A DNA stretch of 64,000 nt, taken from Verrucomicrobiota bacterium (GTDB lineage Bacteria; Verrucomicrobiota; Verrucomicrobiia; Limisphaerales; AAA164-E04). The notes beneath the pieces are model-generated. The model made no database searches. It had not been told where the DNA came from and saw nothing but the letters and a program-made list of their open reading frames with translations. The stretch is taken from NCBI GenBank assembly GCA_047947115.1, contig CP170459.1, forward strand, positions 3,712,001-3,776,000, written 5' to 3'. Shown here in pieces: positions 20,016 through 45,890 of the stretch. How positions within the stretch are numbered: position 1 is the stretch's first letter; each line of letters begins with the position of its first letter. The translations under genes and the position numbers were made by a program.

Positions 20016-22961
20016 CTACCGTGTCAGTTCGAGGTTTTGGTTCCAGTTTTGGACGAGAATGGCATCCGGCTGTCGGCTTCGTTCATTGGATGCTGCGTCG
20101 CCTAGCTGCCTTTCGATGTAGAGAAATTGGCCTGTGGCTGGGACATGGGTCATGATGCGTGGGAAATAACGATTCCCGTAAAACATGTTTTTCGGAAGAT
20201 CGATCACTTTTGCAGGCGGTGTGAAGGCCGGCGCGGGTTCTGGCATGAAGTGAGTGCTGTAAAGAATCTGTGCCTCCGGATCGATGTAATAGAGGGTGTT
20301 GCGGCTTGGGTGCCAGAAAGGATGAATGGCCCTGTGGCCCTGGTTGATGACGTAGCGTATGGAAGCGTCGGGAAACCCCACAACACAGACCGAGTCGTCT
20401 TTTCTCTGTTCTCCTGAAACAAAAGCCATCCATTGATTGTCGTGGGATAGAGCAGGATTCCAGACATCGTCCAAATGAGATGAAAAGGGTTGAGGTGACC
20501 GATTCTCACTCTCCATGTCGATGAATGCATGCCTGCCCCAGCGTGGGTAACCCTGAACCAACACGTAGCGTCCGGATTTGGAAACGGCCACGACATGGCC
20601 CGGGGAAAGCAGGGTTTGTTTGTCGGTGTAGTCGGTTCCACCAAAGAATGTCCGCACTCCTTGATCGTCCCAAAGCCGGAAGACAATTTGCTTCTGATTG
20701 AGCCAATGAGGCGATGCCAGCCAATTCATGTTTTGAAACGATCGGATTCTTGAGCTGGTCTGACGAGCAATGTCGTATTGCCAGAAATGCGAAGATAGAT
20801 CTTCGTTGGCACCAAAGAGGATGTGCTTTTGGTCCGGAGAAATGTCCAGTCCACTGATCCATTGTCGATCCAAAGTTCCTTCCAGATAGGATCCTAGTGT
20901 CCCGTCGTCTTGGATCCAGCGTAAACGAAAAGTGGGTTTGGGTTTTTTGAAATGGTAGATGAGGGTGTTTTGGGCTGAAACGGCAAAACCAAAACTAGCT
21001 TTGTCGGTCACTTTAAAGATTTCGCCAGTCCTTGTCAGGGTAGCCAGGTCAAAAGGGAAGGCCCAGAGCCCCATCTTTCTCGCACTCCAGATATAAAACA
21101 GGATGTGACCACTAGGCGCATACACGGGATTATTCAGGTTGTAACCCTTGAGTTGAAGAAGTTCCTTCCGGCCGGTTTCCTCGCTCCAAATGGTGACCGT
21201 ATCAATGGCGTGATGTCGCCTGTGGGTGATGAATATCAGACCACGACCTTCCGGCAATGCATTGGCTTCGTGAAAGTTGTCGTCCTGGTCCGTAGTCGGA
21301 AGGACAAGCTCCGGAGGCTCGTGGCCGTTGATTTGCACCTTGAAAAGGCCCTGATCCCCTGTGTTGAAAATCAACTCTCCGTTGGCACGCCACAGCCCAC
21401 CTCCATGGTTGGGTGCTTCATTGCCATTGATATTGCAGAGAACCGTGCGCTCATGGGTCTCCAGTGAATGAAGGTAGAGTTTGTTTTTGTCCAGGTAAGC
21501 AATACGGTCGCCTTCAGGTGAGATGAAAGGTTCTTGAACAAAGTGATGATTCAATTGAGCCGTGGGACCCACGTGATCCAATGGGTGAACAAGAATTCCT
21601 TTTTGCGTGCGGAGGATCAATCGGTCGGACCGTGGCGTCAATAGAAATTGGGTGAATGGGCTGAGAATGTGATCGCTCTCGGTGAAGTAAATGGGAAGCG
21701 AAAGAGTGGGTTGGGCCTGTGCCTCTTTTTGAGTTGCCGAGGGAGTGTGTGGGCGACTCAACCAGATGACGCAGCAGAGAATGATGCAAGCCAACCCGGC
21801 GATGCTCCAGGGCAAAAGCCCACGCCTTGGCTGGATCGATTGCGGTGTGGATCGATACTCAAAATCAGAGGCATGCTGCCATTGCAAAAGAATATCTTCC
21901 AGATCGATTCGGGCGGCTCCCATATCAGGGAGTCGACGCTGGACATCCCTTCGGAGACATTTTTCCAACAGCCATCTAAGGTTCTTCGGCGTATCGGCGG
22001 GAAGAGCCTCCCAGGGAATCTCCATCTTCAGGATATTGGAAAGGGTTTCCACTGGGTCCTGGCCGGTGAAAAGGATTTTGCCGGTGAGCATTTCAAAAAG
22101 GACACATCCAAAGCTCCAGATGTCGCTTCGTTGATCCAGAGGGCGACCCCGTGCTTGTTCGGGGCTGAGGTAGGGCAAGGTGCCCATGATAATGGCGGTT
22201 TGGGTAAGCAAGGAGGCGGTTTCGTCCTGCTGCATTGAAGTTTCACCCGAAGCTGCAGCCACAGGAAGCCCGTTGAGGTCGGTGATGAGAGCCGAGATCC
22301 CAAAATCCAGCACCTTGATTTCATTCGTTGAATTGATCTTGATGTTGCCTGGTTTGAGGTCCCTGTGAACAATCCCTTTTGCGTGGGCTGCCTCCACGGC
22401 ATGGCTGATGGAAACGGCCATTTTAATGGCTTCATCGAGAGGCAAGGGGCCCTGTTGCAGTCGTTCTGCCAGGGTATGGCCATCAATGTATTCCATAATG
22501 ATGGCATGGTCGCGATCCGAATGCTCCACTCCATAAATGGCGGCGATGTTGGGGTGTTCCAGCGAGGCGAGTATTTCAGCTTCTTGCTGAACTTTGTGCT
22601 GAAATATTTCGTGTTCGGATCCCTTGTCAGGAATCCATTTTATGGCCACCGGGCGTTTAAGGTGGTTGTCGAGTGCCCGAAACACCTTGCCGCTTACCCC
22701 TTCCCCAATCAATTCCTCCAAGGCGTAGTGGGCAATGGTTGCGGGTGCCTCGCATGGTGTTTTGGTCAAGACACCTGCCGGCTCACGGGTCAGAAAAGCC
22801 GACTGAGTGGTATGAGCCTTCAAGAGGGAGAGAAGGGGGCCATGAAGGCCCGGGTGCGATTGCTCCACGGTTTTTAACCACGATTTTCGAGCAGCGCTGC
22901 CCAGAGACATCGCTTGGTCAAAAAACTTCTCCAGCAACGCATGATTCGACTCCTGTGTCAT
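20016..22961 (-). CDS. Membrane Ser/Thr protein kinase with C-terminal TolB/PD40-like beta-propeller
   Basis: VAIK, HRDLKPGN, DFG, GTLPYLSPEQ, SDIWSFG; TM LLPWSIAGLACIILCCVIWL; propeller repeats (ISPEG, ISPDQ, LSHDN); N-terminal helical extension typical of ECF-linked kinases. Confidence 0.95.
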   Translation of the reverse strand: MTQESNHALLEKFFDQAMSLGSAARKSWLKTVEQSHPGLHGPLLSLLKAHTTQSAFLTREPAGVLTKTPCEAPATIAHYALEELIGEGVSGKVFRALDNHLKRPVAIKWIPDKGSEHEIFQHKVQQEAEILASLEHPNIAAIYGVEHSDRDHAIIMEYIDGHTLAERLQQGPLPLDEAIKMAVSISHAVEAAHAKGIVHRDLKPGNIKINSTNEIKVLDFGISALITDLNGLPVAAASGETSMQQDETASLLTQTAIIMGTLPYLSPEQARGRPLDQRSDIWSFGCVLFEMLTGKILFTGQDPVETLSNILKMEIPWEALPADTPKNLRWLLEKCLRRDVQRRLPDMGAARIDLEDILLQWQHASDFEYRSTPQSIQPRRGLLPWSIAGLACIILCCVIWLSRPHTPSATQKEAQAQPTLSLPIYFTESDHILSPFTQFLLTPRSDRLILRTQKGILVHPLDHVGPTAQLNHHFVQEPFISPEGDRIAYLDKNKLYLHSLETHERTVLCNINGNEAPNHGGGLWRANGELIFNTGDQGLFKVQINGHEPPELVLPTTDQDDNFHEANALPEGRGLIFITHRRHHAIDTVTIWSEETGRKELLQLKGYNLNNPVYAPSGHILFYIWSARKMGLWAFPFDLATLTRTGEIFKVTDKASFGFAVSAQNTLIYHFKKPKPTFRLRWIQDDGTLGSYLEGTLDRQWISGLDISPDQKHILFGANEDLSSHFWQYDIARQTSSRIRSFQNMNWLASPHWLNQKQIVFRLWDDQGVRTFFGGTDYTDKQTLLSPGHVVAVSKSGRYVLVQGYPRWGRHAFIDMESENRSPQPFSSHLDDVWNPALSHDNQWMAFVSGEQRKDDSVCVVGFPDASIRYVINQGHRAIHPFWHPSRNTLYYIDPEAQILYSTHFMPEPAPAFTPPAKVIDLPKNMFYGNRYFPRIMTHVPATGQFLYIERQLGDAASNERSRQPDAILVQNWNQNLELTR

Positions 22962-22987
22962 GAGGCCATGGTGGAATGTGGGGGTGA

Positions 22988-23515
22988 TTAAAGCCTTCTT
23001 GCCAAGTAGGCCCTGCCAAAAATGACCTTGCGCTGGATGGTCCGCTCAGAGATACCCGTAGCCGTTGCAATTTCCTGATTGTTCATGCCAACGAAAAATC
23101 GCATTTGGATAATCTTTCCTACTTCAGGGTGGTCTTTTTCCAGCTGTTGGAGCGCTTCATGCATCGCAAGAATCTGTGGATCGTCACAGTCTTCGGCCGT
23201 CTGAATTTCTTCAAGCATGTGACTGTCGATGTCTGCCATCGGGGGTTGCCGCGAACGTTTTCTGGCTCGATCTACGAGAATGTTGCGCATAACCACAGAG
23301 GCGTAAGCGAAAAAATGTTCTTTTTCCCGCCACCGGTCTCGGCTCTCGAGACGCAACCAGGCCAAATGAGCTAGATCGGTTGCCTGGATGGATTGGGAGT
23401 GGCCAAACTGTTGCAGTTTGAAGCGGGCCAGCTGTCGAAGCCTCAGATAATCTTCGGGAAGCAATTGCCCAGTTTTTTCAAGAATCTGAAAGGGCTGTTT
23501 TAGCTTTTTTCTCAT
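22988..23515 (-). CDS. ECF sigma factor, kinase-associated (TIGR02999/ECF43-like)
   Basis: LLPEDYLRLRQLA...SIQATDLAHLAWLRL...HFFAYASVVMRNILVDRAR...MRFFVGMNNQEIA...ISERTIQR; immediately upstream of the kinase; start ATG 23515 or 23545. Confidence 0.92.
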   Translation of the reverse strand: MRKKLKQPFQILEKTGQLLPEDYLRLRQLARFKLQQFGHSQSIQATDLAHLAWLRLESRDRWREKEHFFAYASVVMRNILVDRARKRSRQPPMADIDSHMLEEIQTAEDCDDPQILAMHEALQQLEKDHPEVGKIIQMRFFVGMNNQEIATATGISERTIQRKVIFGRAYLARRL

Positions 23516-23531
23516 GTTTCTTATCCCGATA

Positions 23532-23570
23532 CGAGGAGGCACCATCTACACTAACGAGCGAGGAGACCGA
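23532..23570 (+). repeat. 39-bp direct repeat, copy 1 (copy 2 at 45978-46016)
   Basis: CGAGGAGGCACCATCTACACTAACGAGCGAGGAGACCGA versus CGAGGAGGCGCCATCTACACCAGCGAGCGAGCAGACCAA, 5 mismatches. Confidence 0.8.
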
Positions 23571-24031
23571 AATAATCCGTGTGTTTCCGATAGGCTGGTA
23601 GAATAACTTTGTTTTAAATAATTACCAGTTTGAACTTATGACTTGAATTAATCGGTCAATCACAGACAATCAATACATTCTAAAGATACAGGACCCACAT
23701 TTTACACGTGCGGGAGACTTCAAATTCAAATAAGCAATTATTTCACAGATTTATCATACTCTCATAAACTCAACCTGTGAGACACCCAATGTATCCATCT
23801 GACTCACAGGGCGTCCTTTTCGCCCACTGCTCTCTTCAGAAAAAAAGCCCCTGGTTTGAAGTCCTAACCCGGATATTTCATCAAAATCAGAAATCTCCAA
23901 AACTGGTGTTAGCACCGGTTTGAAAATGCCGTTTTTCACCGGAATGAACATGTCCATGTTTTCGGGGTAAAAAGAACCCGACGACCTTTTGGTGGACATC
24001 GGGTTGTTTGGTTTCAGGATTGCTACGGCTG

Positions 24032-24787
24032 TTAGGATTCTTCGATCTTATCTCGCATGCGGTAGCTTTTCCCCTGGATCGTTATGGTGCGGGAATGATG
24101 CAACACTCGATACAGAATGGCACTGCTCAGGGTGGCGTCGTTGTTGAAGATTTCACTCCATTTCTTATAGGACTTGTTGGTGGTGAAGATGGTGCTGGAT
24201 TTTTCGTAGCGACCGCTGATGACTTGAAAAAGGAGATCGGCTCCCACTTTGTCGATAGGAAGGTATCCAATCTCATCACAGACCAATATCCGTGGCTTGA
24301 GGTATTTGGCCAGTTCCTGTTTTAAGCGATAGGCAGCGTTGGCGGCGGTGAGTTGATTGATGATGTCTACTGCGGTGGTGTAATAGACCCCGTGATCGTT
24401 CAAGCATGCCTGGTAGCCCAGGGAGCATGCCAAATGTGTCTTCCCCAAACCAACTCCCCCCATGAGGATGACGTTGGAATGGTCTTCCAGGAAGCGCAGT
24501 CCAAAGAGGTCTTTGATCGCTTGGGGATTGATTTTCTGCGGCCAGCTGAAGTCAAAGCTTTCCACAGTTTTGATCACCGGAAAACGGGCGGACTTGATCC
24601 GACGTTGGATTTTGTTGTCGGTGCGACGACAGACTTCGCCGCTGATCAATTCGTGAAGGTAATCGTGGTGCGACCATTGTTTGTCGGCTGCTTCTTTGGT
24701 GATGGTTTTAAGGTTTTCTTCGATGTATCGCAGTTTGAGTATTTGGATTTGTTCGAGCAGTTGCTGGGTTTTGTCTTTTTTCTTCAT
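24032..24787 (-). CDS. istB: IS21 helper ATPase IstB
   Basis: ARFPVIKTVESFDF, GGVGLGKTHLA (Walker A), CDEIGYLP, FTTNK, GKSYR. Confidence 0.94.
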   Translation of the reverse strand: MKKKDKTQQLLEQIQILKLRYIEENLKTITKEAADKQWSHHDYLHELISGEVCRRTDNKIQRRIKSARFPVIKTVESFDFSWPQKINPQAIKDLFGLRFLEDHSNVILMGGVGLGKTHLACSLGYQACLNDHGVYYTTAVDIINQLTAANAAYRLKQELAKYLKPRILVCDEIGYLPIDKVGADLLFQVISGRYEKSSTIFTTNKSYKKWSEIFNNDATLSSAILYRVLHHSRTITIQGKSYRMRDKIEES

Positions 24788-24792
24788 GCTGG

Positions 24793-26265
24793 TTATTCGT
24801 TTCCTTCAAACAGATCGTCCTGGTGATAGGTGGTGAGGTCGGGTTCGGGCAGGTCTACTTCCAGGAGATCTTCACGACGGGTAAGGTGCAGCACGCCGGG
24901 TTCGTTTTGTGGACGTTCGCGTTGCTGCAGGATGTTGATGATGTATTGACTGTCGTAGGCCTTGTAGTGGAGCGCATCCTGAATGGCTCGTGCCACCGGT
25001 TTGTTGCCGTGGGTTTCAACCAGGGCAAGGATGCGGCGTACATGCGTGGTGGTCTGGAAACGTCTATGTTTGAGTGATTCGTAGTATTGTGCCGCCTCGG
25101 TGCAGATTTTCAGGAAGTCCACCAGCATCTTTTGGTCCCGGGCGTGACGTCTTTGTTCCAGGAGGGGGCTGATGTGGTCTTCGTTGACAGTGTCATGCCT
25201 TCTTCGATAACTGCGCACATGGGTGGCAACGAGTTGGTTGTTGTGGTAGAGAAGCAGTTCCTGGGGACGCCGCTTGACGGTGATCCGTTGTACGGCCAAT
25301 CGGTAGGGAGCGGTGTAGGTGTTGGTGTCCAGCCGTATGCGGCAGGTGCTCGATACCCGGTAGTCTTCAATAACACCCGTGTCATATGGTTGAGGGGAGA
25401 GCGGGATCAGTTTTTCTTTTGTGTGCAGATCGATGGGAGCTTGCGCGGTTTGTGGGTGTTTGCGCACGTTGGCCACGTTGCGCAACCATTCCATGGCTGC
25501 TGGTTGCACTTGGGCAAAGTCGGTGAAAGTGTGACTGCTGAGAAAGTTCTTTTTGACGTAGCCGACACCGTTTTCCACACGCCCCTTTTGCTGAGGTTGG
25601 CGCACCCAGCAGGCGACGATGCCAAAGCCAAAGTGGTTGGCCATTTCAAGGTAGCGGGGATGAGGCACCGCAGGGCTGCCAACCGGATGTTTGAGGATGG
25701 CCACTTTGCAGTTGTCGACCCAGATTTTCTTGGGGCATCCGCCAAAAAACTCGAAAGCCTGGCAATGAGCTTCCAGGAAGTGTTCCATGGTTTCGGCCAA
25801 TGTGAAATGGACGTACATCATTCGGCTGTAAGCCAGCACCATCACAAAGGATGACAGTTGGCGCATGGTGTCGCCCACCGGGATTTCACCAAAGGTTCCC
25901 CAGTCGACCTGAGCGCATTCTCCCGGTTCGAAGTCCAGCTTGAGTTAGGCCTGCTTTTGAGGAGGACGGATTTGCCGAACATAATCCCTGAGTACAGTGA
26001 TGCCTCGCTGATAACCTTCGTTACGCAATCTCTGGAAAACTTGCTGGGCGCTGTATGGATGCTCGCGCAACCATGCCGCAATGCGTGGTTTGAAGGGGGC
26101 CAGTTTGCTGTTTCTGGGAGCGGTTGCACGTGGGTGGTATTTTGCACGTTTGATCCATCGGCGCACCGTACGTCGATCGCATCCGATCTTTTTGGCGATT
26201 TGCGATGGCTTGAGCCCATTTGCCTTGAGGTGGTGGATCTCGCTCCAGAGGAAGAAATCAATCAT
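24793..26265 (-). pseudogene. istA: IS21 transposase IstA with one in-frame stop
   Basis: HTH N-terminus (25945..26265), TAA at 25947-25945, then in-frame FEPGECAQVDWG, VLAYSR, VDNCK, KGRVENGVGYVK. Confidence 0.9.
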
Positions 26266-26653
26266 TCAATCCCTCCTTTCCACTCATGGCCTGCTCGAAC
26301 AACTGAGCGATGCTCAACGCTTTCCCGGAACAGGAACGAGTTGGCACAGGTGCCAGATCCAGGACCTGATACAAGGGTTTTTGATAAGCAATCAGACCAC
26401 GGGCAATCAATTGGGAACGCCCCGATTCCAGTCCATCATGTGAAAGTCCACAGGAACGAACCAAGGCCTTATCTCCGTAATAACTGAGCCCTTGAGCGTC
26501 GGAGACGACGACCAAAAACAAATACAAGGCCATGGCGTTGGGCTAAAGATCGCGCAGGTGGTGATCCCGGACCAGGCGATGGTCCAGCCAACTGAAGTGT
26601 TCAGGAACCCGGCGGAGCCGTTCCGGACGCAGTAGACGTTTGTTTATCCTCAT
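26258..26653 (-). pseudogene. IS21 passenger ORF 2 (HTH-like) with in-frame TAG
   Basis: MRINKRLLRPERLRRVPEHFSWLDHRLVRDHHLRDL*PNAMALYLFLVVVSDAQGLSYYGD; TAG at 26545-26543. Confidence 0.7.
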
Positions 26654-27182
26654 TTGAATCCTCTTGATGTTTGGTTAAAGCGCCGGGCAACCGGTTTGTG
26701 GTTCCCAGCACATCCTGCCCCCTTTGTAAGATCTCCCGGGTCTGTTGGCCGATGTCGTCTTGTAACGTGCTTCCGGATATAAGCGATATAAGCCCAACGA
26801 GAAGAGCACGTTGCTCAATCAAGAGATCTTGTAACGCAGGATCAACGATAAGAGCTGCATCCTATTTATTATGTGCAGTTTCCAGAAAGCAGTCGCCTTT
26901 TAACGGTGAACGCCGTTTACGAGGCTTGGTTTGGGCTCGGTAACCAGGGTTTTGCTTGCGCCAATGTTGAACCCGCTTCACATGATTTGGACCTTTCCAG
27001 TAGTCTCTGTTTTCAGGTTTTCGGCTCCACTTACGTTGAGAAGCAGCGCAATGAGCCTTCCGGCATTCGGCCTTGGGACACGTCTTTTGATGCCGAACAT
27101 TACGAAAATCCGGGAAGTAATACTCTTTACATACCTGACACTTGCGTTTGTTGATGCGCTTGCGATGGCGAACCTTACCCAT
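26601..27182 (-). pseudogene. IS21 passenger ORF 1 (Cys-rich, zinc-finger-like) with in-frame TAG
   Basis: KCQVCKEYYFPDFRNVRHQKTCPKAECRKA...; ORFs 26862..27200 and 26601..26822 are in frame across one TAG. Confidence 0.7.
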
Positions 27183-27361
27183 GCCGCAAACAAGGGCCAC
27201 GACACTGAAGAAAAAAGAAGAAAATCCAATCCGCTACTGCGGATCAGGGAAGAAAACGGGAAGAAGAGGATTTGCTGATCAAAGTCTGAAGAAAACGGAA
27301 CACCGAAGAAGATACATTTTCAAACCGTTGGAAAATGGACAATTTCAGCTCGCTGCTCATA

Positions 27362-27590
27362 TTTGGCATCGGCTTCACGCATGAGGCCGTATTTTTTTCG
27401 CCACCGGAGGAGAGTTGCTATGGATATTTGTTCTGTCTACAGAACGCCTCCTGGTTCAGGTCGCTACTATCGGCCTCCCGCAACAAGCGGATGATTTCTT
27501 CTGGTTTGTGTCTTTTTTGCTTCATTGTGAGTTGTTTTGTTTATTCAAAACTTCTCACTCGCTTTGGGCCAGTTTTTCAGGCGGCGGCCA
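27362..27590 (-). mobile_element. IS3-family left-end remnant, truncated by IS21
   Basis: Near-identical to 37504-37733; end TGGCCGCCGCCTGAAAAACTGGCCC on minus strand; orfA start MKQKRHKPEEII. Confidence 0.88.
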
Positions 27591-27611
27591 GTTCTTTTTT
27601 TCTGAAGTTTT

Positions 27612-27640
27612 TGGCACCCTATCTCGCCGTATTTCGTTTA
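27612..27640 (+). promoter_or_regulatory. Putative ECF promoter TGGCAC-N17-CGTTTA
   Basis: TGGCAC 27612-27617, 17-nt spacer, CGTTTA 27635-27640; T-run upstream; 13 nt before ATG 27654; same geometry at three other array promoters. Confidence 0.68.
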
Positions 27641-27653
27641 TGTAAGTAATCGG

Positions 27654-28637
27654 ATGAAAAAAAATATGAAAACAATCGTAAAAAAACCGACCCGCCTTGG
27701 GTTTTTCCTGGCGCTTTATGGTCTACTTTACTGGGGGCTGAGCGCGGCTTCGGCGCAGATGCCAGTCCATGTGAAGCAAAGCCTCGATCGGTTGGTGGGG
27801 CATTGGGAGACGGTGACGCAGCTTGGGGGGCGTCAAATCATTGAACACGCGACCCTCGAATGGAGCGCCGATGAGACCACTCTCTTTTATGAGGGAGAAG
27901 GAGAGAAATTTGCCATCAAAGGGCAAAAAAACCATTTCTCGGGAGTCTTTGGATGGGATGCCAAATCGCAACTGGTTCGGGAGTTTGGCTTTGATAATCA
28001 GGGTGGGACGTTCTTTGCGGATCACTCTATCACGGCCGATTCCTGGTCCGACATAGTGACGGCCACGTCCATTGGGGCGGATGGTCAGACCGTCTCTGAG
28101 GTTTTTAAACGGACTTTTCATTTTGAGTCCGCAGACACCTTTGTTCTGGAATCCAAGAATCGGGTTTTGAGGGGGCAAAAAGGGTTCAAAACGGTATTCA
28201 GAAGAGTTGCTAGTAAGGAGACAGAGGCGACCGATAGCCCCTGTCCCTGGGAGTGGATGTTGGGGCATTGGACGGTCGAGCGGAGTGACGGTTCGTCAGC
28301 CAAAGTTCACTGGGATAAACCAAGATCGAACGTCGACTCGGTAGTGGGTAAATGGTGGGAGTCCGATGGCAATGAGTTTCAAGAGCTTGTCGGGTGGGAG
28401 CCTGACCGAAAACATTTAATAGCCCATGGCTACGGCTTCAAGGGATCCTATTTTAGCGTGCGATTTAACGAAGTAAGCCGCAATGTGATGCGTGGTTTCC
28501 TTCGTAGCCGGGATATGGAAGGGGTTCTTCAAATGTCAGTGGTCCATTTAAATCGGGTTTCCCAAAAAGAGGTTCAGTCCAAAATCATCATGGCTGATGG
28601 CTCCATTGTCTCTGAAACATTCCGTCGATCAAAATGA
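27654..28637 (+). CDS. Exported protein, two lipocalin-like/DUF1579-like barrel modules
   Basis: Signal peptide ending ASA-Q; LDRLVGHWE... and WEWMLGHWT...; repeated GWDAK/GWEPD motifs. Confidence 0.8.
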   Translation: MKKNMKTIVKKPTRLGFFLALYGLLYWGLSAASAQMPVHVKQSLDRLVGHWETVTQLGGRQIIEHATLEWSADETTLFYEGEGEKFAIKGQKNHFSGVFGWDAKSQLVREFGFDNQGGTFFADHSITADSWSDIVTATSIGADGQTVSEVFKRTFHFESADTFVLESKNRVLRGQKGFKTVFRRVASKETEATDSPCPWEWMLGHWTVERSDGSSAKVHWDKPRSNVDSVVGKWWESDGNEFQELVGWEPDRKHLIAHGYGFKGSYFSVRFNEVSRNVMRGFLRSRDMEGVLQMSVVHLNRVSQKEVQSKIIMADGSIVSETFRRSK

Positions 28638-28783
28638 AGGTTAATCCTTACGGGGTTACCTGGATTTGTCCCTTTTGATAACGCCTTGTTCATTCAGCAA
28701 GAAGGGCATTGTTGCCATCGGAGAGTTAGTTGAAATCGGAGGTTAAGAACGAATTAAAACACACGCAGAAAAAACAGACAGTT

Positions 28784-29596
28784 ATGAATAGACGATTAAA
28801 ACTAATTGGGTTTGCCGCCCTCGTGGCCGGCTTTTGTTTCGGGAAAAGCTTCAGTCTTATGGCGCAGGAAGAGGAGCCACCTCCGATGTACATCAACATT
28901 GGCTTTTACAAAGTCGATCAGGAAAACAGGGCTGCCTATGAAATGTTGATGAAGGATGTTTTTGGACCCATCATGCAAAAACGGGTTGACGAGGGATGTC
29001 TTAACAATTGGATTTTTCGACGCGTTCTCCCCAATTCTTCGCTGTTCGGGGAATTCACTCATATGACGCTTGATGTCATGCTGCCTGGTGAGGAGGGGTA
29101 TTGGAATTGCGAGGCCAATCTGGAGGAGGTCTTTCCGGGGCTTAGTCCTGAGGTCAGGGAATATCTATACCAAGAGAAAAACAGTCTCAGAACCTTGGTT
29201 CAACGAGTTAGGACTTCCTATGTGGCTGGTTACACTTCGCTGACGCAGGCCCCCCCGATTGCCGTTTTCAATTTGAGTAAAACGAAATCCGACCAATACG
29301 AAGCTAAACATCGAGATGGATTTGCTGACTTTTTTGCCGAAGGGAGTAACACGGTGGCCTGCCACGCCATGAAGCGGATTGACTCCACGGCCTGGGCAAA
29401 ATGGGAATGGGACTACCTCACGGTTGACTGCTACGAGACTCCGGCAAAGATGCGCGAGCCCGTTCGCTTTCCGGCTGAAAAAAGTCGGTATTACCAAGAG
29501 AACTACGGTCCCGCCTCCGATCAACGGGATATTCTTATGCGTGCTGAGACCCGCCTTTTATTCGCCACGGAAAAAAAAGAGGCTCCCCAAAACTAA
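28784..29596 (+). CDS. Exported protein, paired dimeric alpha+beta-barrel-like modules
   Basis: Signal peptide ending LMA-Q; FYKVDQENRAAYEMLMKDVFGPIMQKRVDEGCLNNWIFRRV, resembles central parts of 34790, 39106 and 43649 genes. Confidence 0.78.
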   Translation: MNRRLKLIGFAALVAGFCFGKSFSLMAQEEEPPPMYINIGFYKVDQENRAAYEMLMKDVFGPIMQKRVDEGCLNNWIFRRVLPNSSLFGEFTHMTLDVMLPGEEGYWNCEANLEEVFPGLSPEVREYLYQEKNSLRTLVQRVRTSYVAGYTSLTQAPPIAVFNLSKTKSDQYEAKHRDGFADFFAEGSNTVACHAMKRIDSTAWAKWEWDYLTVDCYETPAKMREPVRFPAEKSRYYQENYGPASDQRDILMRAETRLLFATEKKEAPQN

Positions 29597-29637
29597 GAGT
29601 AGGTCATTTTTAACAAACTGAGGCAAAAGGAAACGAA

Positions 29638-30216
29638 ATGCGATTTAAGCAAAGTTATTCGAGCATTCTTAAAGCGTTGTTTTTGAGTGTCACGCTGGGG
29701 GTTTTGTCATCGTCCGTTGTGACCGGCGCCGAACCGAGTCCTTCATTGAATCGTGAGTTGGCTCCTTTGTCGTGGCAACTGGGCACATGGAAGTGGTCAC
29801 AGCTTGAGGGTGATGTTGTGAATTCGGGCGTGGTGGAAATTCGTTCAGGCCTCAACGGGACGGCTATTTTTCATGACGGTCACAGCACTGCTGGGGGTGA
29901 GTTTCGCTTTCATGTGAGTGTGGCCTTTGATCCTCAGCGGGGCGTGCCAGTCGCGCGTGGTAGCAATAACCATGGGGAGGTTTGGCAAGATCTGGTGGGC
30001 CTATTCGAAGGCCGGTGTGTGATGAGGCGGACCTACATCAATGCAAAGCCGGTGATGAAAATCGATGGCACGCAATCGGAAGGTATGGGCATCCATACCC
30101 GCATCATCACTCAGACCAGAATCAATCATGACACCTGGAAACACGAGCAAGTGTTGATCCTTCCCTCAGGCAAGGCGGAGACACGCTTTGTTGCCCGCCT
30201 GGAAAGGGTGAAGTGA
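29638..30216 (+). CDS. Exported single lipocalin-like barrel protein
   Basis: Signal peptide; ELAPLSWQLGTWK...LNGTAI...FDPQ; similar to 30332 and 38279 genes. Confidence 0.8.
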   Translation: MRFKQSYSSILKALFLSVTLGVLSSSVVTGAEPSPSLNRELAPLSWQLGTWKWSQLEGDVVNSGVVEIRSGLNGTAIFHDGHSTAGGEFRFHVSVAFDPQRGVPVARGSNNHGEVWQDLVGLFEGRCVMRRTYINAKPVMKIDGTQSEGMGIHTRIITQTRINHDTWKHEQVLILPSGKAETRFVARLERVK

Positions 30217-30331
30217 TCCGTTGAACGTTGGTTTTGTCCCCAGGCCCAGTTTTCTCACTCAAACCATTGGCAAGAATGACTAATCGGCTCTGTTGGCCCA
30301 TTGAATACAAACGACTGCTTACTTTCAAACC

Positions 30332-31636: not shown

Positions 31637-31737
31637 ATAGAAGGCCATTAAGCTTGGGGAGACGTCCGATTTGGCGGTGATATCAGACTCCTCGACGAGG
31701 TCTCTCTGGAGTCGGACGGCTAACTTAGAAATTTAGA

Positions 31738-32829: not shown

Positions 32830-32902
32830 AGGCGTGTACCCTTCACCATGTTATGGAGGGAAAAAACGCCTGTAACTGAAGCGAAGATAAAGCCGAAAAG
32901 AA

Positions 32903-34705: not shown

Positions 34706-34789
34706 TCGGTCGCTCAAATGGAGCTTTTCGAGCCGTTCGATCAACAATCACGACAGAATTTTAAAAATGAAACAAAGATAACAGAAAAA

Positions 34790-36460: not shown

Positions 36461-36516
36461 GAACCTCATTGGGCGAGTCCTGCGAATCGCGGCAAAAAGG
36501 CATAAATCGAACCACC

Positions 36517-36710
36517 ATGACAATTCCCAATAGACTGAAAAAATCCCTCCGAGCGATCGTCGTCGTCGGTTGTCCTCAAGGGGCTATGGTCACGCACGCG
36601 TCCATGCCCGAGGCCGTTAAAGCGAGTCTAAACCGGATGGTGGGGCAATGGGTGCTGAGCACCGAACTCGGCGACCGTACTGTTACCGAAAGCATTACCT
36701 TTGAGTCGTC
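36517..36710 (+). pseudogene. Truncated paralog of 27654 gene, interrupted by IS3
   Basis: MPEAVKASLNRMVGQWVLSTELGDRTVTESITFE aligns with MPVHVKQSLDRLVGHWETVTQLGGRQIIEHATLE; runs into IS3 sequence. Confidence 0.78.
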
Positions 36711-37733
36711 AATTCTCTCCTGAACTTGTCGTGGAAACTTTCGACATACCCGTTCTACCATGGGCTACCAGGATCAATGTAGAGCGTTTTGATACCCTGT
36801 TCCTTGAGCCACTCTCCCAATGAACGTCCGATAAACTCTGGACCATTGTCCGATCGGATGAAGTCAGGTGCTCCATATTTGTCGATCATTTTTTCCATCA
36901 GTGCTTGAACCGTCTTGGAACCTATATGTCTGGCCACATGGAGACAATGGGCCTGGCGCGTGTATTCATCGACAACACTCAAAATCCGGCAACTGCCTCC
37001 TTTGAGTGTCCAGTCATGGATAAAATCCCAAGTCCATACATGCCCGGGATAGGATGCCTTCTGCGGGTGCCGTCCAGTGGATTGCCCCAATCGCCGCTGC
37101 TTTTTCTTTGGAGGTGGAACCAGGAGCCCTTCTTGCCGACGAACCTGTCTGACTCGATCATTACTGACTCTATGGTTCTCATTACGCACTAACCTCCCAA
37201 TCTTATCTGCTCCTCATTCCGGGTATTCATGACTAAGCCTGACAATGGCCTGTTCCACAGCAAAGCGGTATGGTGACGGAAACTTGGCTTCGTATCGGAA
37301 CGTGGACCTATTGATTTCAAAGAAACGGCAAGCTTGCCGTTGAGAGCAACCTTCCTCTTTCTTGGCCTGTCTGGCAAGATCGCGGCGATGAGCGGGGCTC
37401 AAAGCTTTTTTTCAATGGTCTCCTTGAGAACTTTGATTCCAAGCATGGCCTCGGCATACATTTTCTTGAGCTCGGCATTTTCCTTTTCCAGGGCGTTCAA
37501 CCGCTTGGCATCGGCTTCACTCATGAGGCCGTATTTTTTGCGCCACCGATGGAGAGTTGCTATGGATATTTGCTTCTGCCTACGGAACGCCTCCTGGTTC
37601 AGATCGCTCCTATCGGCCTCCCGCAACAAGCGGATAATTTCTTCTGGTTTGTGTCTTTTTTGCTTCATTGTGAGTTGTTTTGTTTATTCAAAACTTCTCA
37701 CTCGCTTTGGGCCAGTTTTTCAGGCGGCGGCCA
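36710..37733 (-). mobile_element. IS3-family element, degraded and right-end truncated
   Basis: orfA 37399..37668; orfB broken (37214..37402, 36755..37189) with HVWTWDF, IRSDNGPEF, PGSPW*NGYVESF; left end at 37733. Confidence 0.9.
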
Positions 37734-38180
37734 TCGCCTTTGACTGAGTTTTTTCAAGTTGGGCTCAATCATTTGTCGTCGATGTCCAAACCCAACTGCA
37801 CGCACTTTTTTTGCAGCCACTCCACCTCCATGGTCAACTGGCCAACCTTGGCCTGTAGGGCATTTCGCACCGGAGTAAAGTCCTTGTCCTTCTTCTTTTT
37901 CGTATCTTTCTCGAAGGCGGAATCCATGTTGTCCATCAGATGCTTCTTCCATTCACTTACCTGGACCGGATGGATCTAATATTACGCCGCAATCTCTGAT
38001 GCCGTCTTGATACCCTTAATGGCCTCCATGGCCACTCTTGCCTTAAATTTGGAGCTATGGCGCCGCCTGTTCTGTTTGCTCATTCTGATTTTGTCCTTTG
38101 ACTTGCGTCATCCTACAAAACCCAAGCTCTTTATCAAAAATTTAGCTTAACTCCTGGCCCAGTTTTCCGGGTCCGCCACA
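37734..38180 (-). mobile_element. Second IS3-family remnant (orfA pseudogene)
   Basis: Left end TGTGGCGGACCCGGAAAACTGGGCCA at 38180; MSKQNRRRHSSKFKARVAMEAIKG...IHPVQVSEWKK...KVGQLTMEVEWLQKK with stops. Confidence 0.85.
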
Positions 38181-38278
38181 ATAGGCAATGGAGGGGCCAT
38201 TGCATCGTGTAAATATGATGGAACCTGGCATGTCTCGTGTCGATCACAAAGAGGAAGTTTGTGCAATGGATCGATGGT

Positions 38279-38827
38279 CTACTTGGAGCCTTTTGGGGCT
38301 GACTGCGCAGCGATGCGTTTGTGTTCGGTCGATGGCAGTTGGTTGACGCGTCCTTGGGCATCGATCTGGATTCGGATGAAAGTGTAGTTCTCATCGTCGC
38401 GTCGAATGTCCATTCCGACATGCGATTCGATCTCTCCATCCTCATTCAGGCTCTCGGTTCGGAAGATGGTCTTGTCCTTGAACAAGGAGCCCTTGTTTTC
38501 CCAGTAATCGCCCTTGCTGTTGATGAAAACAGTTCTCACGGTTTTTTCTTTCTTGTCGTAAAACCGCATTCCGTGAATTTGGTTGCCGTTGCTGTGGCTT
38601 CCCTGGATTTGAATCATCGTACCCTTCAACTGAGCAGTGAAGGAAACCGTCCACTTGCCGTCTGGGAAGGTGGCTTGCCATGTGCCGAGCTGCCAGGCCA
38701 TGGGTTGAAGGGGGCTGATAAGGTTTTGCTCATCGGCTCTTGTCATGCTAACCCATGGCAGTATGACAAGGAACAGGGTCCAGACGGAGGCCCGGAGGTG
38801 GTAACTGATATTATTTAGCAATCTCAC
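38279..38827 (-). CDS. Exported single lipocalin-like barrel protein
   Basis: Signal peptide ending TRA-D; LQPMAWQLGTWQ...WTVSFTAQLKGTMI...RFYDKK, paralog of the 30332 N-domain; GTG start 38827 inferred. Confidence 0.8.
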   Translation of the reverse strand: MRLLNNISYHLRASVWTLFLVILPWVSMTRADEQNLISPLQPMAWQLGTWQATFPDGKWTVSFTAQLKGTMIQIQGSHSNGNQIHGMRFYDKKEKTVRTVFINSKGDYWENKGSLFKDKTIFRTESLNEDGEIESHVGMDIRRDDENYTFIRIQIDAQGRVNQLPSTEHKRIAAQSAPKGSK

Positions 38828-38834
38828 ATTGATA

Positions 38835-38863
38835 ACCACGACTTGTGGGTACCAACTGCGCCA
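38835..38863 (-). promoter_or_regulatory. Putative ECF promoter TGGCGC-N17-CGTGGT
   Basis: Minus strand: T-run, TGGCGC (38863-38858), 17-nt spacer, CGTGGT (38840-38835). Confidence 0.68.
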
Positions 38864-39059
38864 AAAAAATCTCCTTAGATGTTGGGTGGACTTAATTCAG
38901 GTGTCCCAGGTAATTCATTTTTTTAACGCCATTTGAAGTGATGCATGGCCGAAATTGCTATCTTTTGTGACCAAAAGAAATCGTTTAGCCCGGTGGCCGA
39001 TTTATCGCGCATTTAATATGCAGAAACCAGTCAAAAAATTTGCAATCTTGTGACTTTTT

Positions 39060-39088
39060 TGGCGGGTTTATCCCGCGTTGCACGTTTC
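39060..39088 (+). promoter_or_regulatory. Putative ECF promoter TGGCGG-N17-CGTTTC
   Basis: T-run, TGGCGG 39060-39065, 17-nt spacer, CGTTTC 39083-39088; ATG at 39106. Confidence 0.68.
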
Positions 39089-39105
39089 AATATTGTAATT
39101 CATCT

Positions 39106-40803
39106 ATGAAAAATACAAGACTTCTCATAATTTATACACTATTAGCCACTTTGTTGGCAAGCTGCGCTACAACGAACCAGACTTCGACCGAAATTGCCGC
39201 ACCGAAAGCAGAACAAAATCAACAAACCACACCGGCCGAAGAAGTTCCTTATTCGGTTCGCTTAAAGCAAGCAAGGCAACCGTACGGATTTGTCCTATTC
39301 CAGAGCATGGATGTTGCTGATGGAATGGAGAAACAATATCTAAGGGTTGAAAAGGAGTGGCTTAAAATCCACGAACATTTGGCCAAGCAGGGAAAAATCC
39401 TTTCCTGGGGCCTGGCCAAAGCCAGAGAGAATAGTCTTGGTTATGAATACGTAACCTGGAAGACGTTTAGGTCACTAAAGGACCTAGAGGCAACTTACGA
39501 TTGGGACGAATTAGGAAAGTGGATGGGACAAGAAAAATTAGATCTGCTTTTCGAAAAGACAAATGAGGCAAGAACGATAACTGGAAGTCAAGTCCTGCGG
39601 CTGCGCGACTACGCTCAAATGCCCTTATCCCAGACAAGCATTTTTGAGAACCTCTCACCACAAGACATCTCATTCAGGTTAAATTTCCTCGCCCCAACAC
39701 CTGGAAAAAGAGCCAAATATTTGGAGATTGTCGAAAAGGCATACAGTCCATTGTTTGAGAAAAGGGCCGAGATAGACAAAACTTTCCTCGGCTGGGAATA
39801 TCAGGAGCTCATGTATTACAATGGCCAGGGCAACACAGAGCCATTTAGAGGAATAGATATTTTTAGAAATGACATCCCAGAGCTGACAGAAGCTGAGCAA
39901 GAAATCGTAAATGCTGAACTCCCAAGCTGGCCGGAGGATATCTACCCAATGTCAAAGCGCGGGGAGTTACGGACTATGACTACCGTCACCTTCGATATTG
40001 TGCAGGTCATCATGCAAAATGCTGAATCGACTCTCATGAATGAGCTAGTTGGCACTTGGACACACACAAACCCTGATGGCTCATACCGAACAAAAACAGT
40101 TACTCCTTATGCTGAGCAACTCAGTTTTTTCGCTTCAGATGGAACTCTTTTGCAGAAAAGGCAGCCTATTCCCTTGCGCATCGAAGCAAGCAACAAATTG
40201 ACTAGGTTCACGGGCTTTTTCCCAAATGGAAAAACATGGAATGCGTCCATACAAATTCACGATGGAAAATGGTATGAGCAGGATAGAGCCTTCACCGACC
40301 TCGAACAGTTTGATGGTGTTTATCCAGCGGCGCCCGATGCCTACTTCGTCTACGAAAAGTCAGCAGAACCGGCTCAAAGAAATCTTGCTGCCTACGACAA
40401 TTCTGAGGAAGGCACGGCCCTAATTCGAAACATCGTAGAATCATATGCCAAGGGTGATTTCAAAAAACTTCGTAGCTACTTTAGTGATGATGCAAAAGTT
40501 GTTCACAACCAATGGGGACCAGCCGCCGAAGGAATAACTATCGATGAGCTAATTGAGACTCATAAAAAACACCATGCCACACTTGCAAAACCTGTCGAAG
40601 TCCTGAATAGCATCTACGAAGCGGTCACATTGCCAAATGGCGGCAAACATGCACATGGATGGATTAACATGCGTAATACAACCAAATCAGGAGAAGTCAC
40701 AGACACCAACGTTTTCGTCGCATTTGGTGTAGGAAATGATGGCAAAGCCACCTATGAATGGGCTCTTTTCGACCCGGCAGGAATACCATCATACCAAAAG
40801 TAG
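39106..40803 (+). CDS. Lipoprotein: alpha+beta pair + barrel + SnoaL-like domain
   Basis: Lipobox LLASC; YLRVEKEWLKIHEHLAKQGKILSWGLAK; LVGTWTHTNPDGSYRTK; SnoaL-like IVESYAKGDFKKLRSYFSDDA. Confidence 0.85.
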   Translation: MKNTRLLIIYTLLATLLASCATTNQTSTEIAAPKAEQNQQTTPAEEVPYSVRLKQARQPYGFVLFQSMDVADGMEKQYLRVEKEWLKIHEHLAKQGKILSWGLAKARENSLGYEYVTWKTFRSLKDLEATYDWDELGKWMGQEKLDLLFEKTNEARTITGSQVLRLRDYAQMPLSQTSIFENLSPQDISFRLNFLAPTPGKRAKYLEIVEKAYSPLFEKRAEIDKTFLGWEYQELMYYNGQGNTEPFRGIDIFRNDIPELTEAEQEIVNAELPSWPEDIYPMSKRGELRTMTTVTFDIVQVIMQNAESTLMNELVGTWTHTNPDGSYRTKTVTPYAEQLSFFASDGTLLQKRQPIPLRIEASNKLTRFTGFFPNGKTWNASIQIHDGKWYEQDRAFTDLEQFDGVYPAAPDAYFVYEKSAEPAQRNLAAYDNSEEGTALIRNIVESYAKGDFKKLRSYFSDDAKVVHNQWGPAAEGITIDELIETHKKHHATLAKPVEVLNSIYEAVTLPNGGKHAHGWINMRNTTKSGEVTDTNVFVAFGVGNDGKATYEWALFDPAGIPSYQK

Positions 40804-40871
40804 AGTAAACATCGGATTACATGACAAAATGTCACACATTGTAATAATGGAAGGTAACGTGGTTCCTGAAA

Positions 40872-43644: not shown

Positions 43645-43648
43645 ATCG

Positions 43649-45733
43649 CTATAACTTTTCGTAAATCAAAAATTTGGTAGGTTCCCCACTACTATCGCGC
43701 CAAATACCCCGCATCTGTTCATACCATTTATTATCCTTAATCTTATATATCGAATGATACGTTCCATTTGCGTGAAAGGAGTAGAAATGATTCAAACCAC
43801 CCTTGACTTCAATTTTCATCGGCAAGATAAACTTACTTTTTAAAAGACCATCGGAATCATAAAGTTCCAATTGTTCGGTTCCTTGCGTGATATGCTTGAT
43901 GCGATAACTACCATCCTCATTGGTATGCTTCCAAGAACCCTTTAATTTTTTCCATTCATTTTTCACAGGATGAAATTCATGGTTAGCCTTTATAAGGATC
44001 TCAAACTGGGGACCGCTCGCCATTTTCCGCAACTCACCCCACTCAACATTAGGCTTGTTAAGAATACTCATTGCTTTTTGGGTGGTAGATTGCCAAGCAC
44101 TTTCACCAGGAAGACTCTCCGCGCTTTTAAAATGTGCAGTAACAAAATCATGGGTTATACCTGATCGATTAGACTCGATTAGGCGATGTAATGCCCACCC
44201 CCCAAAAGTCGGATCCATGCTTGAAACAATTTGCCAAAATGGTTTTGCCATGTTCATTTCTGCAAAAAGGTAGTCCTGAATTTTACCAGGTTGCACATTC
44301 ATATAGCCCATGTTGATTTGCCGGATATCCATGCCTCCTGAATTAGGCGACCAATATTGATCGACAGCCTGATAAATATCACTTCCGGCAGATTGAACAT
44401 AAGGCCATGTCCTTTCTCCTAAATCTGCTCTACTGCCAACAGCTGAATAATCCAACGTGTCCCATATAGAACCGTTTTGCATATCTTCCATCGACGCATA
44501 CACCTGCACGGTAGCGTAGTTTGGCTCACCCATATTTGCGTTTTTTATTTTGGCCACATGCCAATGAAGCAAGCTACCTCTTTGCATTCTCTGTTCGTGA
44601 AGTCCTTTCCATTCCTCTTCAGCAGCGAGATATGATTGAACGTCTTGGTCGGCAACTATTTTAAAATCTGTCTTAATGTAACCCGTAAATCTTTGGGATT
44701 CTTTTGTCCTTTGAAAATATGAACGTTTAGTCTTAGCGTTACTATCTTCAGCATTATCAATATTAGCATTTTGTTTTCTTTTAAGTATATAACCGCCAAC
44801 AACATCTGTGTAAATGCCGTTATCTTTTGACTGCCATTTGGCATGTATTTCATTTAAACTAAGGAAAGACCTAACTAGACGACTATCACCCTGACGTTGT
44901 CCTGTGGTCATGCTCCCCATGAAATCCCAGCCGCCAACTTGAGAAAAACCATTTTTAGTTATGCTATACATCACGAGCTCTCCATTTGCGTGATTTCTCC
45001 GAGTTAGGTTGTAACCGCCACCGGTGGGGTTACCCTCTTCATCGAAAAAAACGAATCTCTCATGAAGACTTGCCCCGAGATCAAATTCCCGAAATAGAAT
45101 TTTCAAATTAACATTTCCCGACTCACCAATGGATTCCCAAGACCCATGAAGATCTTCTAATCTTGGGTCTAATGTTTTTATTTTATTTTTGGCCCATACA
45201 ACTTCGCCTTTATCTCCGGGGTTATAGTCAATTTTTTGTGCTTCGATACTTGGAGTCTTTTCAATATACGATTTATCAAAGCCAATAACATTCACTGAGT
45301 ACTCTGAGAATTTGTCCCGCTTTTTATTCCAAGATAACTCAATTTGCCCTGAGACATTGCCATTCTCAGACGATCCTGAGAAGGTGACGACGCTTCCTTT
45401 GTCTTCAAACCTTTCGGTTGATCGTCCCAATCGGCCATTGGAGTCAGCCCAAAGTCTGTCTCCAATTTGATTATTTTGAATAGTTTGAAATGCACTCCAA
45501 GCTGATACAGGCTCAAGAGTTTCCGGATCGATACTAACGTGAGCTACCCGTTGCAAACCAACTACACCGTCCGTCCAATACCATCTGAAACCTTGACGCT
45601 TAGTTCCATCTTCATCTACGGAATGCCACTTCCATGCCCCATCTAGCGGGTGTTTTGAAATTTCTTGGGCATCGACTTCCACAAACGTACTTACCAATAT
45701 TAAGGCAATGCCTAGTATTTGAATGTTTTTCAT
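43649..45733 (-). CDS. Exported chimeric protein: two barrels + alpha+beta pair + barrel
   Basis: Signal peptide ending VDA-Q; N-half aligns with 32903 gene (ERF.FFDE.G, GF.Q.GGWDF, RLVR); C-half aligns with 34790/39106 genes (GSWKHTNEDGSYR, KWYEQ); visibly AT-richer. Confidence 0.85.
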   Translation of the reverse strand: MKNIQILGIALILVSTFVEVDAQEISKHPLDGAWKWHSVDEDGTKRQGFRWYWTDGVVGLQRVAHVSIDPETLEPVSAWSAFQTIQNNQIGDRLWADSNGRLGRSTERFEDKGSVVTFSGSSENGNVSGQIELSWNKKRDKFSEYSVNVIGFDKSYIEKTPSIEAQKIDYNPGDKGEVVWAKNKIKTLDPRLEDLHGSWESIGESGNVNLKILFREFDLGASLHERFVFFDEEGNPTGGGYNLTRRNHANGELVMYSITKNGFSQVGGWDFMGSMTTGQRQGDSRLVRSFLSLNEIHAKWQSKDNGIYTDVVGGYILKRKQNANIDNAEDSNAKTKRSYFQRTKESQRFTGYIKTDFKIVADQDVQSYLAAEEEWKGLHEQRMQRGSLLHWHVAKIKNANMGEPNYATVQVYASMEDMQNGSIWDTLDYSAVGSRADLGERTWPYVQSAGSDIYQAVDQYWSPNSGGMDIRQINMGYMNVQPGKIQDYLFAEMNMAKPFWQIVSSMDPTFGGWALHRLIESNRSGITHDFVTAHFKSAESLPGESAWQSTTQKAMSILNKPNVEWGELRKMASGPQFEILIKANHEFHPVKNEWKKLKGSWKHTNEDGSYRIKHITQGTEQLELYDSDGLLKSKFILPMKIEVKGGLNHFYSFHANGTYHSIYKIKDNKWYEQMRGIWRDSSGEPTKFLIYEKL

Positions 45734-45861
45734 TTTTTTACGATATCTTGTTGGGTTCAGGGCATTGTTGGATTTTGCTGCAACTGAAATGCTTTTTTCG
45801 TTGTTAGTAACATTTACGTAGGTTCCCCAAAAAGACGAAACCAAATTAGCCCATTTTTCTT

Positions 45862-45890
45862 TACACGTATTAATGTCTCGAAGGGCGACA
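45862..45890 (-). promoter_or_regulatory. Putative ECF promoter TGTCGC-N17-CGTGTA
   Basis: Minus strand: A/T-run, TGTCGC (45890-45885), 17-nt spacer, CGTGTA (45867-45862). Confidence 0.62.

Follow-up and report, generated by a model that had tools for sequence, protein, structure and literature searches.

Receptor Ser/Thr kinases that switch on a partner extracytoplasmic function (ECF) sigma factor are described for EcfK/PknS of Xanthomonas citri and EcfP/PknT of Vibrio parahaemolyticus, in which, according to the parts of the reports available, a PF07638 sigma factor has the gene of a single-pass receptor kinase at its +1 position, a threonine replaces the DAED motif and no anti-sigma factor is seen (PMC13147305, PMC8999054). 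In a 64,000-nucleotide stretch of DNA from a Verrucomicrobiota bacterium (contig CP170459.1, positions 3,712,001 to 3,776,000; hereafter the window, whose own numbering is used below), we analyzed a sigma/kinase locus that shares these traits, with QATD where EcfK has QATE at the phosphorylated position (PMC13147305). As far as those accounts go, it differs in its verrucomicrobial host, in having a TolB-like propeller where the described kinases have a TPR ectodomain, and in its candidate targets, which in the described systems are type VI secretion system or polymyxin-resistance genes and here are unnamed exported pocket proteins, referred to as cargo. The explanation that we favor, with modest confidence, is that a kinase-paired, ECF43-type sigma factor reads the sequence TTTTTGGC-N19-CGT(T/G) and turns on neighboring genes for predicted exported, domain-shuffled proteins with small-molecule pockets. 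The regulatory pair consists of:

20016..22961, minus strand: Ser/Thr kinase, Hanks-type receptor, with a cytoplasmic kinase, one membrane helix and a TolB-like beta-propeller ectodomain
22988..23515, minus strand: ECF sigma factor, TIGR02999 / PF07638, its start set by comparison with relatives

The sigma open reading frame (ORF) taken from its first ATG is 22988-23545(-), and 23515 is the likely start; a sigma-70 scan upstream of it gave two weak 9/12 sites on the minus strand. The protein, of 175-185 aa and without a C-terminal TPR extension, scores 136.7 bits against TIGR02999 (cut-off 126.15) and 103 bits against PF07638 Sigma70_ECF (cut-off 21.1), and its region 2.2 contains QATDL, with Thr in place of the DAED motif. 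The kinase gene occupies the +1 position, 26 nt downstream on the same strand, and encodes a product with a Pkinase match (E=6e-50, Pfam profile search), intact kinase motifs, a single hydrophobic helix at about residues 380-403 and a PD40/TolB-like propeller at its C-terminus. Judged by three sequence hallmarks (PF07638/TIGR02999 membership, the kinase at +1 and the region 2.2 Thr), the pair is of ECF43 type, which agrees with an earlier reading made from the sequence only; the propeller-bearing kinase next to an ECF sigma gene and the QATDL at the phosphorylatable position, both named in that reading, are likewise borne out by the profile matches and by EcfK. The locus falls outside the narrow 2021 account of ECF43 (Proteobacteria, TPR ectodomain, GTC/CAG), with which it was compared by description on the basis of the available part of the source (PMC7826278).

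By analogy with EcfP/PknT and EcfK/PknS, a periplasmic cue would bind the propeller ectodomain and make the kinase active, the kinase would phosphorylate the QAT threonine, and the sigma factor could then bind RNA polymerase, a chain of events that we consider very likely. The active sigma factor would transcribe the motif-led units, and their products would act in the periplasm, outside the cytoplasm, by binding or converting small organic molecules. This type of switch is already known; the locus stands out for its cargo, for the promoter variant and for the evidence of cassette docking. The sequence-only reading knew of no named system with such a layout, which still applies to the cargo and the promoter, as neither is described in the literature searched (few subscription papers were covered, and TIGR02999 as a term matched no paper), and does not apply to the switch.

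The candidate target genes are:

27654..28637, plus strand: A1, two large (DUF1579-like) barrels
28784..29596, plus strand: A2, tandem dimeric alpha+beta barrel, joined to A7, A10 and A11 by the module profile named A4
29638..30216, plus strand: A3, one large barrel (DUF1579-like lead)
30332..31636, plus strand: A4, large barrel and TPR-like helical region (TPR matches below cut-off)
31738..32829, plus strand: A5, likely two barrel modules
32903..34705, plus strand: A6, two barrels and two SnoaL/NTF2 domains (SnoaL_2 E=7e-8, above cut-off)
34790..36460, plus strand: A7, tandem alpha+beta barrel, small lipocalin barrel and SnoaL
36517..36711, plus strand: A8, truncated A1 paralogue that aligns to the A1 N-terminus and is cut by an IS3 copy from 36712
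38279..38839, minus strand: A9, single large barrel, its true start likely a GTG at 38827
39106..40803, plus strand: A10, lipoprotein with tandem alpha+beta barrel, small lipocalin barrel and NTF2/SnoaL domain
43649..45730, minus strand: A11, two large barrels, tandem alpha+beta barrel and small barrel
19326..19733, plus strand: 135-aa cargo-type gene, without a signal peptide, in frame behind an IS1634 remnant and convergent on the kinase

The ten intact genes and the truncated A8 were all recovered where the sequence-only reading had put them. Its assignment of signal peptides or a lipobox agrees with a hydropathy check, which is not a signal-peptide predictor: 10/10 intact ORFs carry a hydrophobic segment at the N-terminus (mean hydropathy of 2.2-2.9 across 11 residues), with no membrane helix after it, and A10 has the lipobox LASC. 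Its set of eleven was incomplete, since the cargo-type gene at 19326-19733(+) had been overlooked; this gene found no match in a Pfam search and is 71% identical to a gene within a related array of L125. The genes were also said to be related, and pairwise comparison together with module profiles shows them to be shuffles of four shared modules and not a single family. A7 and A10 are 31% identical (E=2e-77), whereas no pairwise comparison tied A1, A2 or A5 significantly to other cargo, and these three are joined through profiles or relatives, the A5 module being fused to an A9-type module in one relative (L079) and a second relative (L042) matching both A5 and A6. Because 9 of the 11 ORFs in the genome that matched the module profiles lie inside the window, cargo is clustered there far beyond chance.

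Reading of upstream regions yielded a motif, TTTTTGGC-N19-CGT(T/G), that occurs seven times in the 6.08-Mb genome, and three of these seven copies head A1, A9 and A10:

27608..27638, plus strand: candidate sigma promoter TTTTTGGC-N19-CGTT, heading A1-A8, matrix rank 1
38837..38867, minus strand: candidate sigma promoter TTTTTGGC-N19-CGTG, heading A9 (and, where the insert is absent, sigma-kinase too), rank 18
39056..39086, plus strand: candidate sigma promoter TTTTTGGC-N19-CGTT, heading A10, rank 49

The ranks, out of 12,161,490 positions, come from a matrix of four sites in genomes G002 and G019 that are non-orthologous to those of the window, and the test is only partly blind because motif shape and matrix mask were picked after the window sites had been seen. 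At spacers of 14-18 and 20-24, none of 40 copies fell in the region (0/40). The array locus of G002 holds five motif copies in 20 kb. Among 20 further, unlinked sites fetched from a family-wide pattern search, three precede cargo-family genes and four precede exported esterases; those of G002, G004 and G005 are intergenic in 10/10 cases, the remainder of these ten lying ahead of a TIR gene and a membrane gene, and 8/10 of the others lie inside ORFs. Overall, the motif-led genes of relatives include esterases and a pyrroloquinoline quinone (PQQ) dehydrogenase. Of 36 kinase ORFs scanned, 5, each of them at another TIGR02999 locus, have a related sequence, TTTGGCCC-N18-CGCA, ahead of the kinase, so that the TTTTTGGC motif appears to be one form of a promoter used family-wide, distinguished by its -10 box; the motif also differs from the GTC/CAG promoter predicted for ECF43 in the accessible part of that source (PMC7826278).

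The 37-nt repeat at 23532-23568 and 45978-46014 (89% identical), the latter copy of which abuts an IS3 end upstream of A11, was rejected as a regulon motif: it has two copies only in the genome and none in the relatives' loci examined, and it begins at an insertion junction.

The insertion sequence (IS) elements and boundaries of the locus are:

23531..38180, no strand: 14.65-kb insertion that separates A9 from sigma and is missing in close relatives; TAT flanks it on either side, and its right-hand edge is an IS3 end
23863..27360, minus strand: IS21-type remnants (istB 24032-24787, broken istA 24793-26265)
27363..27590, minus strand: IS3-family end, direct repeat of 37505-37733
36712..38181, minus strand: two nested IS3-family remnants that close the insertion
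47130..47204, minus strand: tRNA-Thr, a 44-nt copy of whose 3' end at 46800-46843 bounds the variable region

Since A9, sigma and kinase are contiguous and co-oriented in relatives at 84-97% nucleotide identity, 23531-38180 is an insertion into the gap between A9 and sigma. In G001 (97% nucleotide identity), G010, G012 and seven metagenome contigs that are intact upstream, A9-sigma-kinase is preceded by the motif, either exact or with one base changed, an arrangement that usually marks an ECF operon under its own control, and motif-A9-sigma-kinase is likely one operon that is autoregulated in close relatives. From this placement it is probable, at a confidence only slightly below that for the phosphorylation steps, that the adjoining sigma reads the motif and controls its own expression in insert-free strains.

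Within the insert, two IS3 direct repeats flank A1-A8, and the best-scoring promoter copy is also kept there, in the 64 bases ahead of A1. Orthologues of A1-A5 occur in G002 and G019 in a different order and at 60-84% protein identity, A4 being 83% identical across genera at the DNA level, and other close strains have a different, A6-like cargo gene between IS remnants downstream of the kinase. The insert and these differing cargo genes together indicate that cargo comes and goes around a fixed core, and most of the cargo likely arrived later as a transposon-flanked cassette. It is reasonably probable, given the IS flanks, that cargo genes arrive as IS-flanked cassettes already bearing a compatible promoter. 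The IS21 and IS3 remnants recognized in the sequence-only reading were found again by profile search (IstB, PF01695, and IS3-type integrases). That reading had also removed 23907-27590 to place sigma head-to-head with A1; the spacing arithmetic holds (about 0.43 kb), although the resulting layout is derived and was rejected as the ancestral order, which in relatives is the contiguous A9-sigma-kinase.

Linkage across genomes follows the sigma factor more closely than the cargo. The sigma clade of this locus has 100/100 support in a 37-row tree, and 13 of its 15 rows, which represent about five lineages, lie beside cargo (12 labeled in the tree plus L095); the contigs of the remaining two end 57 and 287 bases past the kinase. 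By contrast, 0/15 control regions around other TIGR02999 sigmas or their kinases hold cargo. A quick kinase tree gave similar subgroups and added two orphan kinases of the host genome, one of them beside an A11 fragment. Related loci fall in Limisphaerales, Pedosphaera and Verrucomicrobiota. In G085, which belongs to another family, the sole TIGR02999 sigma above cut-off directly precedes a WD40 kinase and six barrel genes, four of which, in tandem, are fused to ankyrin repeats. With motif placement and the G085 case, clade-specific linkage in differing gene orders argues against what we regard as a very improbable reading, namely that an IS-rich island beside tRNA-Thr merely gathered exported orphan genes with no shared regulation. 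That reading draws on at least eight IS remnants, the duplicated tRNA 3' end, gene G+C contents in the region of 41% to 57%, and an A11 paralogue whose island, at another tRNA, has neither sigma nor motif.

Several observations weigh against our explanation, beyond the partial blindness of the matrix test and the few lineages behind the clade counts. The insert parts sigma from its motif promoter in this strain. No clear motif was seen upstream of A11, nor was it found at the G085 array or upstream of the A11 paralogue, so the local regulon first proposed for all of the genes gains support from the motif for the units headed by A1, A9 and A10, and none for A11. Viewed from the cargo, 5 of 28 cargo-anchored loci (30 minus L039, without cargo, and L044, which overlaps L027) hold a sigma or kinase in the fetched stretch, several of them being short contigs; the expected proximity of cargo to a TIGR02999 sigma and kinase therefore holds from the sigma side and far less from the cargo side. 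G030 has five cargo genes and no TIGR02999 sigma above cut-off, and L125 (Ca. Pelagisphaera) has a similar array beside a TetR-like gene (labeled by eye). The link between sigma and cargo is not obligate: cargo also occurs without such a regulator. Moreover, the host genome has two further TIGR02999 sigmas above cut-off, and G005 and G003 (79% and 86% complete) have motif sites with no detected member of the sigma clade.

This last point also speaks for a quite improbable alternative, in which another TIGR02999 sigma, for example the conserved one at C1:1402054, reads the motif and the adjoining pair is a mere fellow traveler. The C1:1402054 sigma is genus-wide, and the kinases of its relatives have a similar -35 box; however, the -10 box ahead of those kinases is CGCA, as opposed to CGTT/CGTG at the arrays, close relatives have the motif in front of the very operon that encodes A9, sigma and kinase, and complete genomes without the clade show motif counts near the reversed-pattern control.

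Distant DUF1579-like genes were rejected as part of the system, as 0/20 of their regions had a TIGR02999 sigma and 1/20 an unrelated kinase (the barrel gene was not recovered by the ORF caller in 6/20). Several features of the regulators and arrays were observed in passing. The genus-wide TIGR02999 sigma at C1:1402039-1402611 has no adjoining kinase in the host genome, and a second, at C1:4772233-4772780, is split over two frames. Orphan propeller kinases of the window-kinase clade, without an adjoining sigma, lie at C1:2344181-2346202, convergent on an A11 fragment beside an integrase, and at C1:3292909-3295634, where the gene is split into two ORFs. In a 60-kb cluster (L058-L060, G020:C11:20000-80000), roughly ten TIGR02999 sigma genes and twelve or so kinases follow one another in tandem. 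At L042:8120-12446, four tandem small-lipocalin-barrel/ankyrin-repeat genes follow a TIGR02999 sigma and WD40 kinase; at L125:6621-12970, tandem alpha+beta barrel genes, an A10-like gene and a homologue of 19326-19733 are divergent from the TetR-like gene (by eye). TIR-domain genes recur near cargo or behind the motif (L025:9246-13234, L034:13803-15863, L104:364-1854), one of them fused to a PD40 propeller resembling the kinase ectodomain.

The cargo folds are clearest for A10, whose AlphaFold model (predicted local distance difference test, pLDDT, 84.6) and fold search agree with the lipocalin-like, SnoaL/NTF2-like and dimeric alpha+beta barrel-like folds predicted from sequence. Its modeled tandem alpha+beta barrel resembles 2pgc (Z 14.8, root-mean-square deviation (rmsd) 3.6, 201 aligned), with putative monooxygenases and sulfur oxygenase reductase within about one Z unit, and its NTF2/SnoaL domain resembles the NTF2-like 3rob (Z 13.9, rmsd 3.5, 125 aligned). 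Folded alone (pLDDT 88.8), the middle domain is predicted to be a lipocalin-type barrel, similar to lipocalin 4gzv (Z 10.1, rmsd 3.4, 106 aligned), with the eight up-down strands and GxW of lipocalins/calycins; potempin E (Z 9.6, rmsd 3.0, 89 aligned) tied with the top row, followed by ToxS (Z 8.0) and staphostatin (Z 6.7). This small barrel found nothing in Foldseek at E<=0.001 and a lead only in the Atlas (best score 0.81), and its profile had 0 matches in 400 other genomes drawn across the phylum. The large barrel, a module of A1, A3, A4, A6, A9 and A11, gave only DUF1579 and nitrobindin-like clusters as leads: in the Atlas it reached 0.91 to clusters with 15-48% DUF1579, a G085 relative scored 24.8 against PF07617, just below the cut-off of 25.2, and a Pfam search of the window proteins had no DUF1579 match.

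The alpha+beta barrel touched named enzyme families below threshold only (TIGR03792 in 10/36 members; rhamnose mutarotase and HmuQ in one each). Its Y, E, W, H, W and R residues are kept in 74-95% of 163 rows, and HNxW, YE, HxW and EW of the SnoaL domain are kept in 29 rows; because these polar residues are conserved, a defined pocket or active site fits the cargo modules. Sequence searches of solved structures with module profiles A2, A3 and A4 and the 135-aa gene gave nothing meaningful, a viral fold library gave only generic NTF2/ABM matches, and PADLOC anti-phage defense models gave no meaningful match for any of 11 proteins (one partial, E=0.004). The module search returned 630 cluster representatives at E<=0.001. 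Homologues combine the modules in many further ways, extend to Planctomycetota, Marinimicrobia, Opitutales and one Flavobacteriales bin, and have no functional names; for none of the modules did we find a ligand, an activity or a family name.

Considering the folds, the conserved polar residues and the co-regulated esterases and PQQ dehydrogenase in relatives, we give an even chance to the proposal that the cargo handles small molecules, e.g., esters, alcohols or aromatics from algal matter. The principal rival keeps the regulon and takes the cargo to be protein-binding inhibitors or immunity proteins against predators, proteases or toxins. The match of the small barrel to the protease inhibitor potempin E and, more weakly, to staphostatin is in keeping with such a panel, as are the fusions of barrels to the TPR-like region in A4 and to ankyrin repeats in the four tandem G085 genes, and EcfK/PknS responds to amoeba contact according to the available part of that report (PMC13147305). 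We nevertheless think it unlikely, since enzyme-like polar residues are kept in the alpha+beta barrel and the SnoaL domain, esterases and a PQQ dehydrogenase are among the motif-led genes of relatives, and neither the window nor the arrays showed a toxin gene.

The sequencing runs that hold the cassette are aquatic, 6 of 20 being metatranscriptomes, and on this basis the host is likely marine or estuarine. In three metatranscriptomes from three studies, contigs spanning A1-A8 begin at 27660, 27667 and 27714, and on the A9 side contigs of the same runs end at 38809, 38809 and 38807, whereas a DNA run extends beyond both boundaries. Transcription starts are predicted near 27645(+), 38830(-) and, for A10, 39093(+), and the contig ends fall 15-70 bases inside the first two. 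These ends are a weak hint in support of the motif promoters, contigs being unable to show starts or levels. One RNA contig joins 23501 to 38275, indicating that an insert-free allele was present in the same sample. The stretch 24169-26836 lacks RNA contigs and was not counted as a silent control, as the IS21 part may be missing from the strains sampled (loose ends at 23906).

Further observations concern the surrounding mobile DNA. Inverted 47-nt IS ends at 19959-20005 and 46477-46523 bracket the kinase-to-A11 region and could make it a composite transposon. At 15905-17584 a gene for a PEP-utilising enzyme is broken by an IS that has two further genomic copies at 99.8% identity, and 55999-57816 encodes a 605-aa exported protein with many short P.GIWSDG.TMWV.D-type repeats, likely a beta-propeller. 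The island at G000:C1:341562-355900, with two tRNA-Tyr-like bounding copies (by eye), two tyrosine integrases and three near-identical transposase genes, carries the A11 paralogue (45%) and a gene for a 183-aa exported barrel-like protein, without sigma, kinase or motif.

Other known systems resemble single aspects of the locus. YCII proteins are dimeric alpha+beta barrels, the fold of one cargo module. ECF42 and its upstream YCII/DGPF genes likewise form a small regulon of neighboring genes, although ECF42, as described in the available part of the source, has a TPR extension, no kinase and a TGTCGAT/CGTC promoter (PMC7826278), and the targets here are exported multi-module proteins. In the co-component sensors VtrA/VtrC and ToxR/ToxS, the gene of a lipocalin-like periplasmic protein adjoins that of a single-pass signaling protein, as A9 does in the core operon, and the output is a DNA-binding membrane regulator in place of a kinase and sigma, as far as the accessible text goes (PMC9214523). 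A9, which lies ahead of sigma in every close insert-free relative, may by this analogy be a co-receptor like VtrC; however, the fold match to ToxS/VtrC belongs to the small barrel and not to A9, and a more distant sigma subclade has no A9 upstream.

In integron cassette arrays, variable cargo gathers by a fixed core and differs between close strains. Variable cargo stands beside a fixed core at the sigma-kinase locus as well, but no integrase or attC was seen here, and the cassettes are IS-flanked with their own candidate sigma-dependent promoter. The cytoplasmic part of the kinase is 81-86% identical to those of three relatives and the ectodomain 59-63%. Tentatively, and with considerable doubt, we propose a plug-in regulon in which a mobile core (promoter, A9 co-receptor, sigma and a kinase with a fast-evolving propeller) would be joined by IS-docked, promoter-bearing cassettes into an inducible library, particular to each strain, of exported small-molecule binders or enzymes, with the orphan kinases of the clade feeding the same sigma. 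If true, such a regulon would be integron-like in effect, without an integrase.

Kinase-activated sigmas are very common in Verrucomicrobia and related phyla, and in the literature covered, as far as its available parts go, their targets are described only for EcfK and EcfP. The present locus offers a concrete candidate promoter, three candidate start sites, a probably autoregulatory core and cassette swaps from strain to strain, in a marine lineage that metatranscriptomes also contain. Beyond this, there is a large pool of exported modules without names, and the inducing cue could lead to their ligands.

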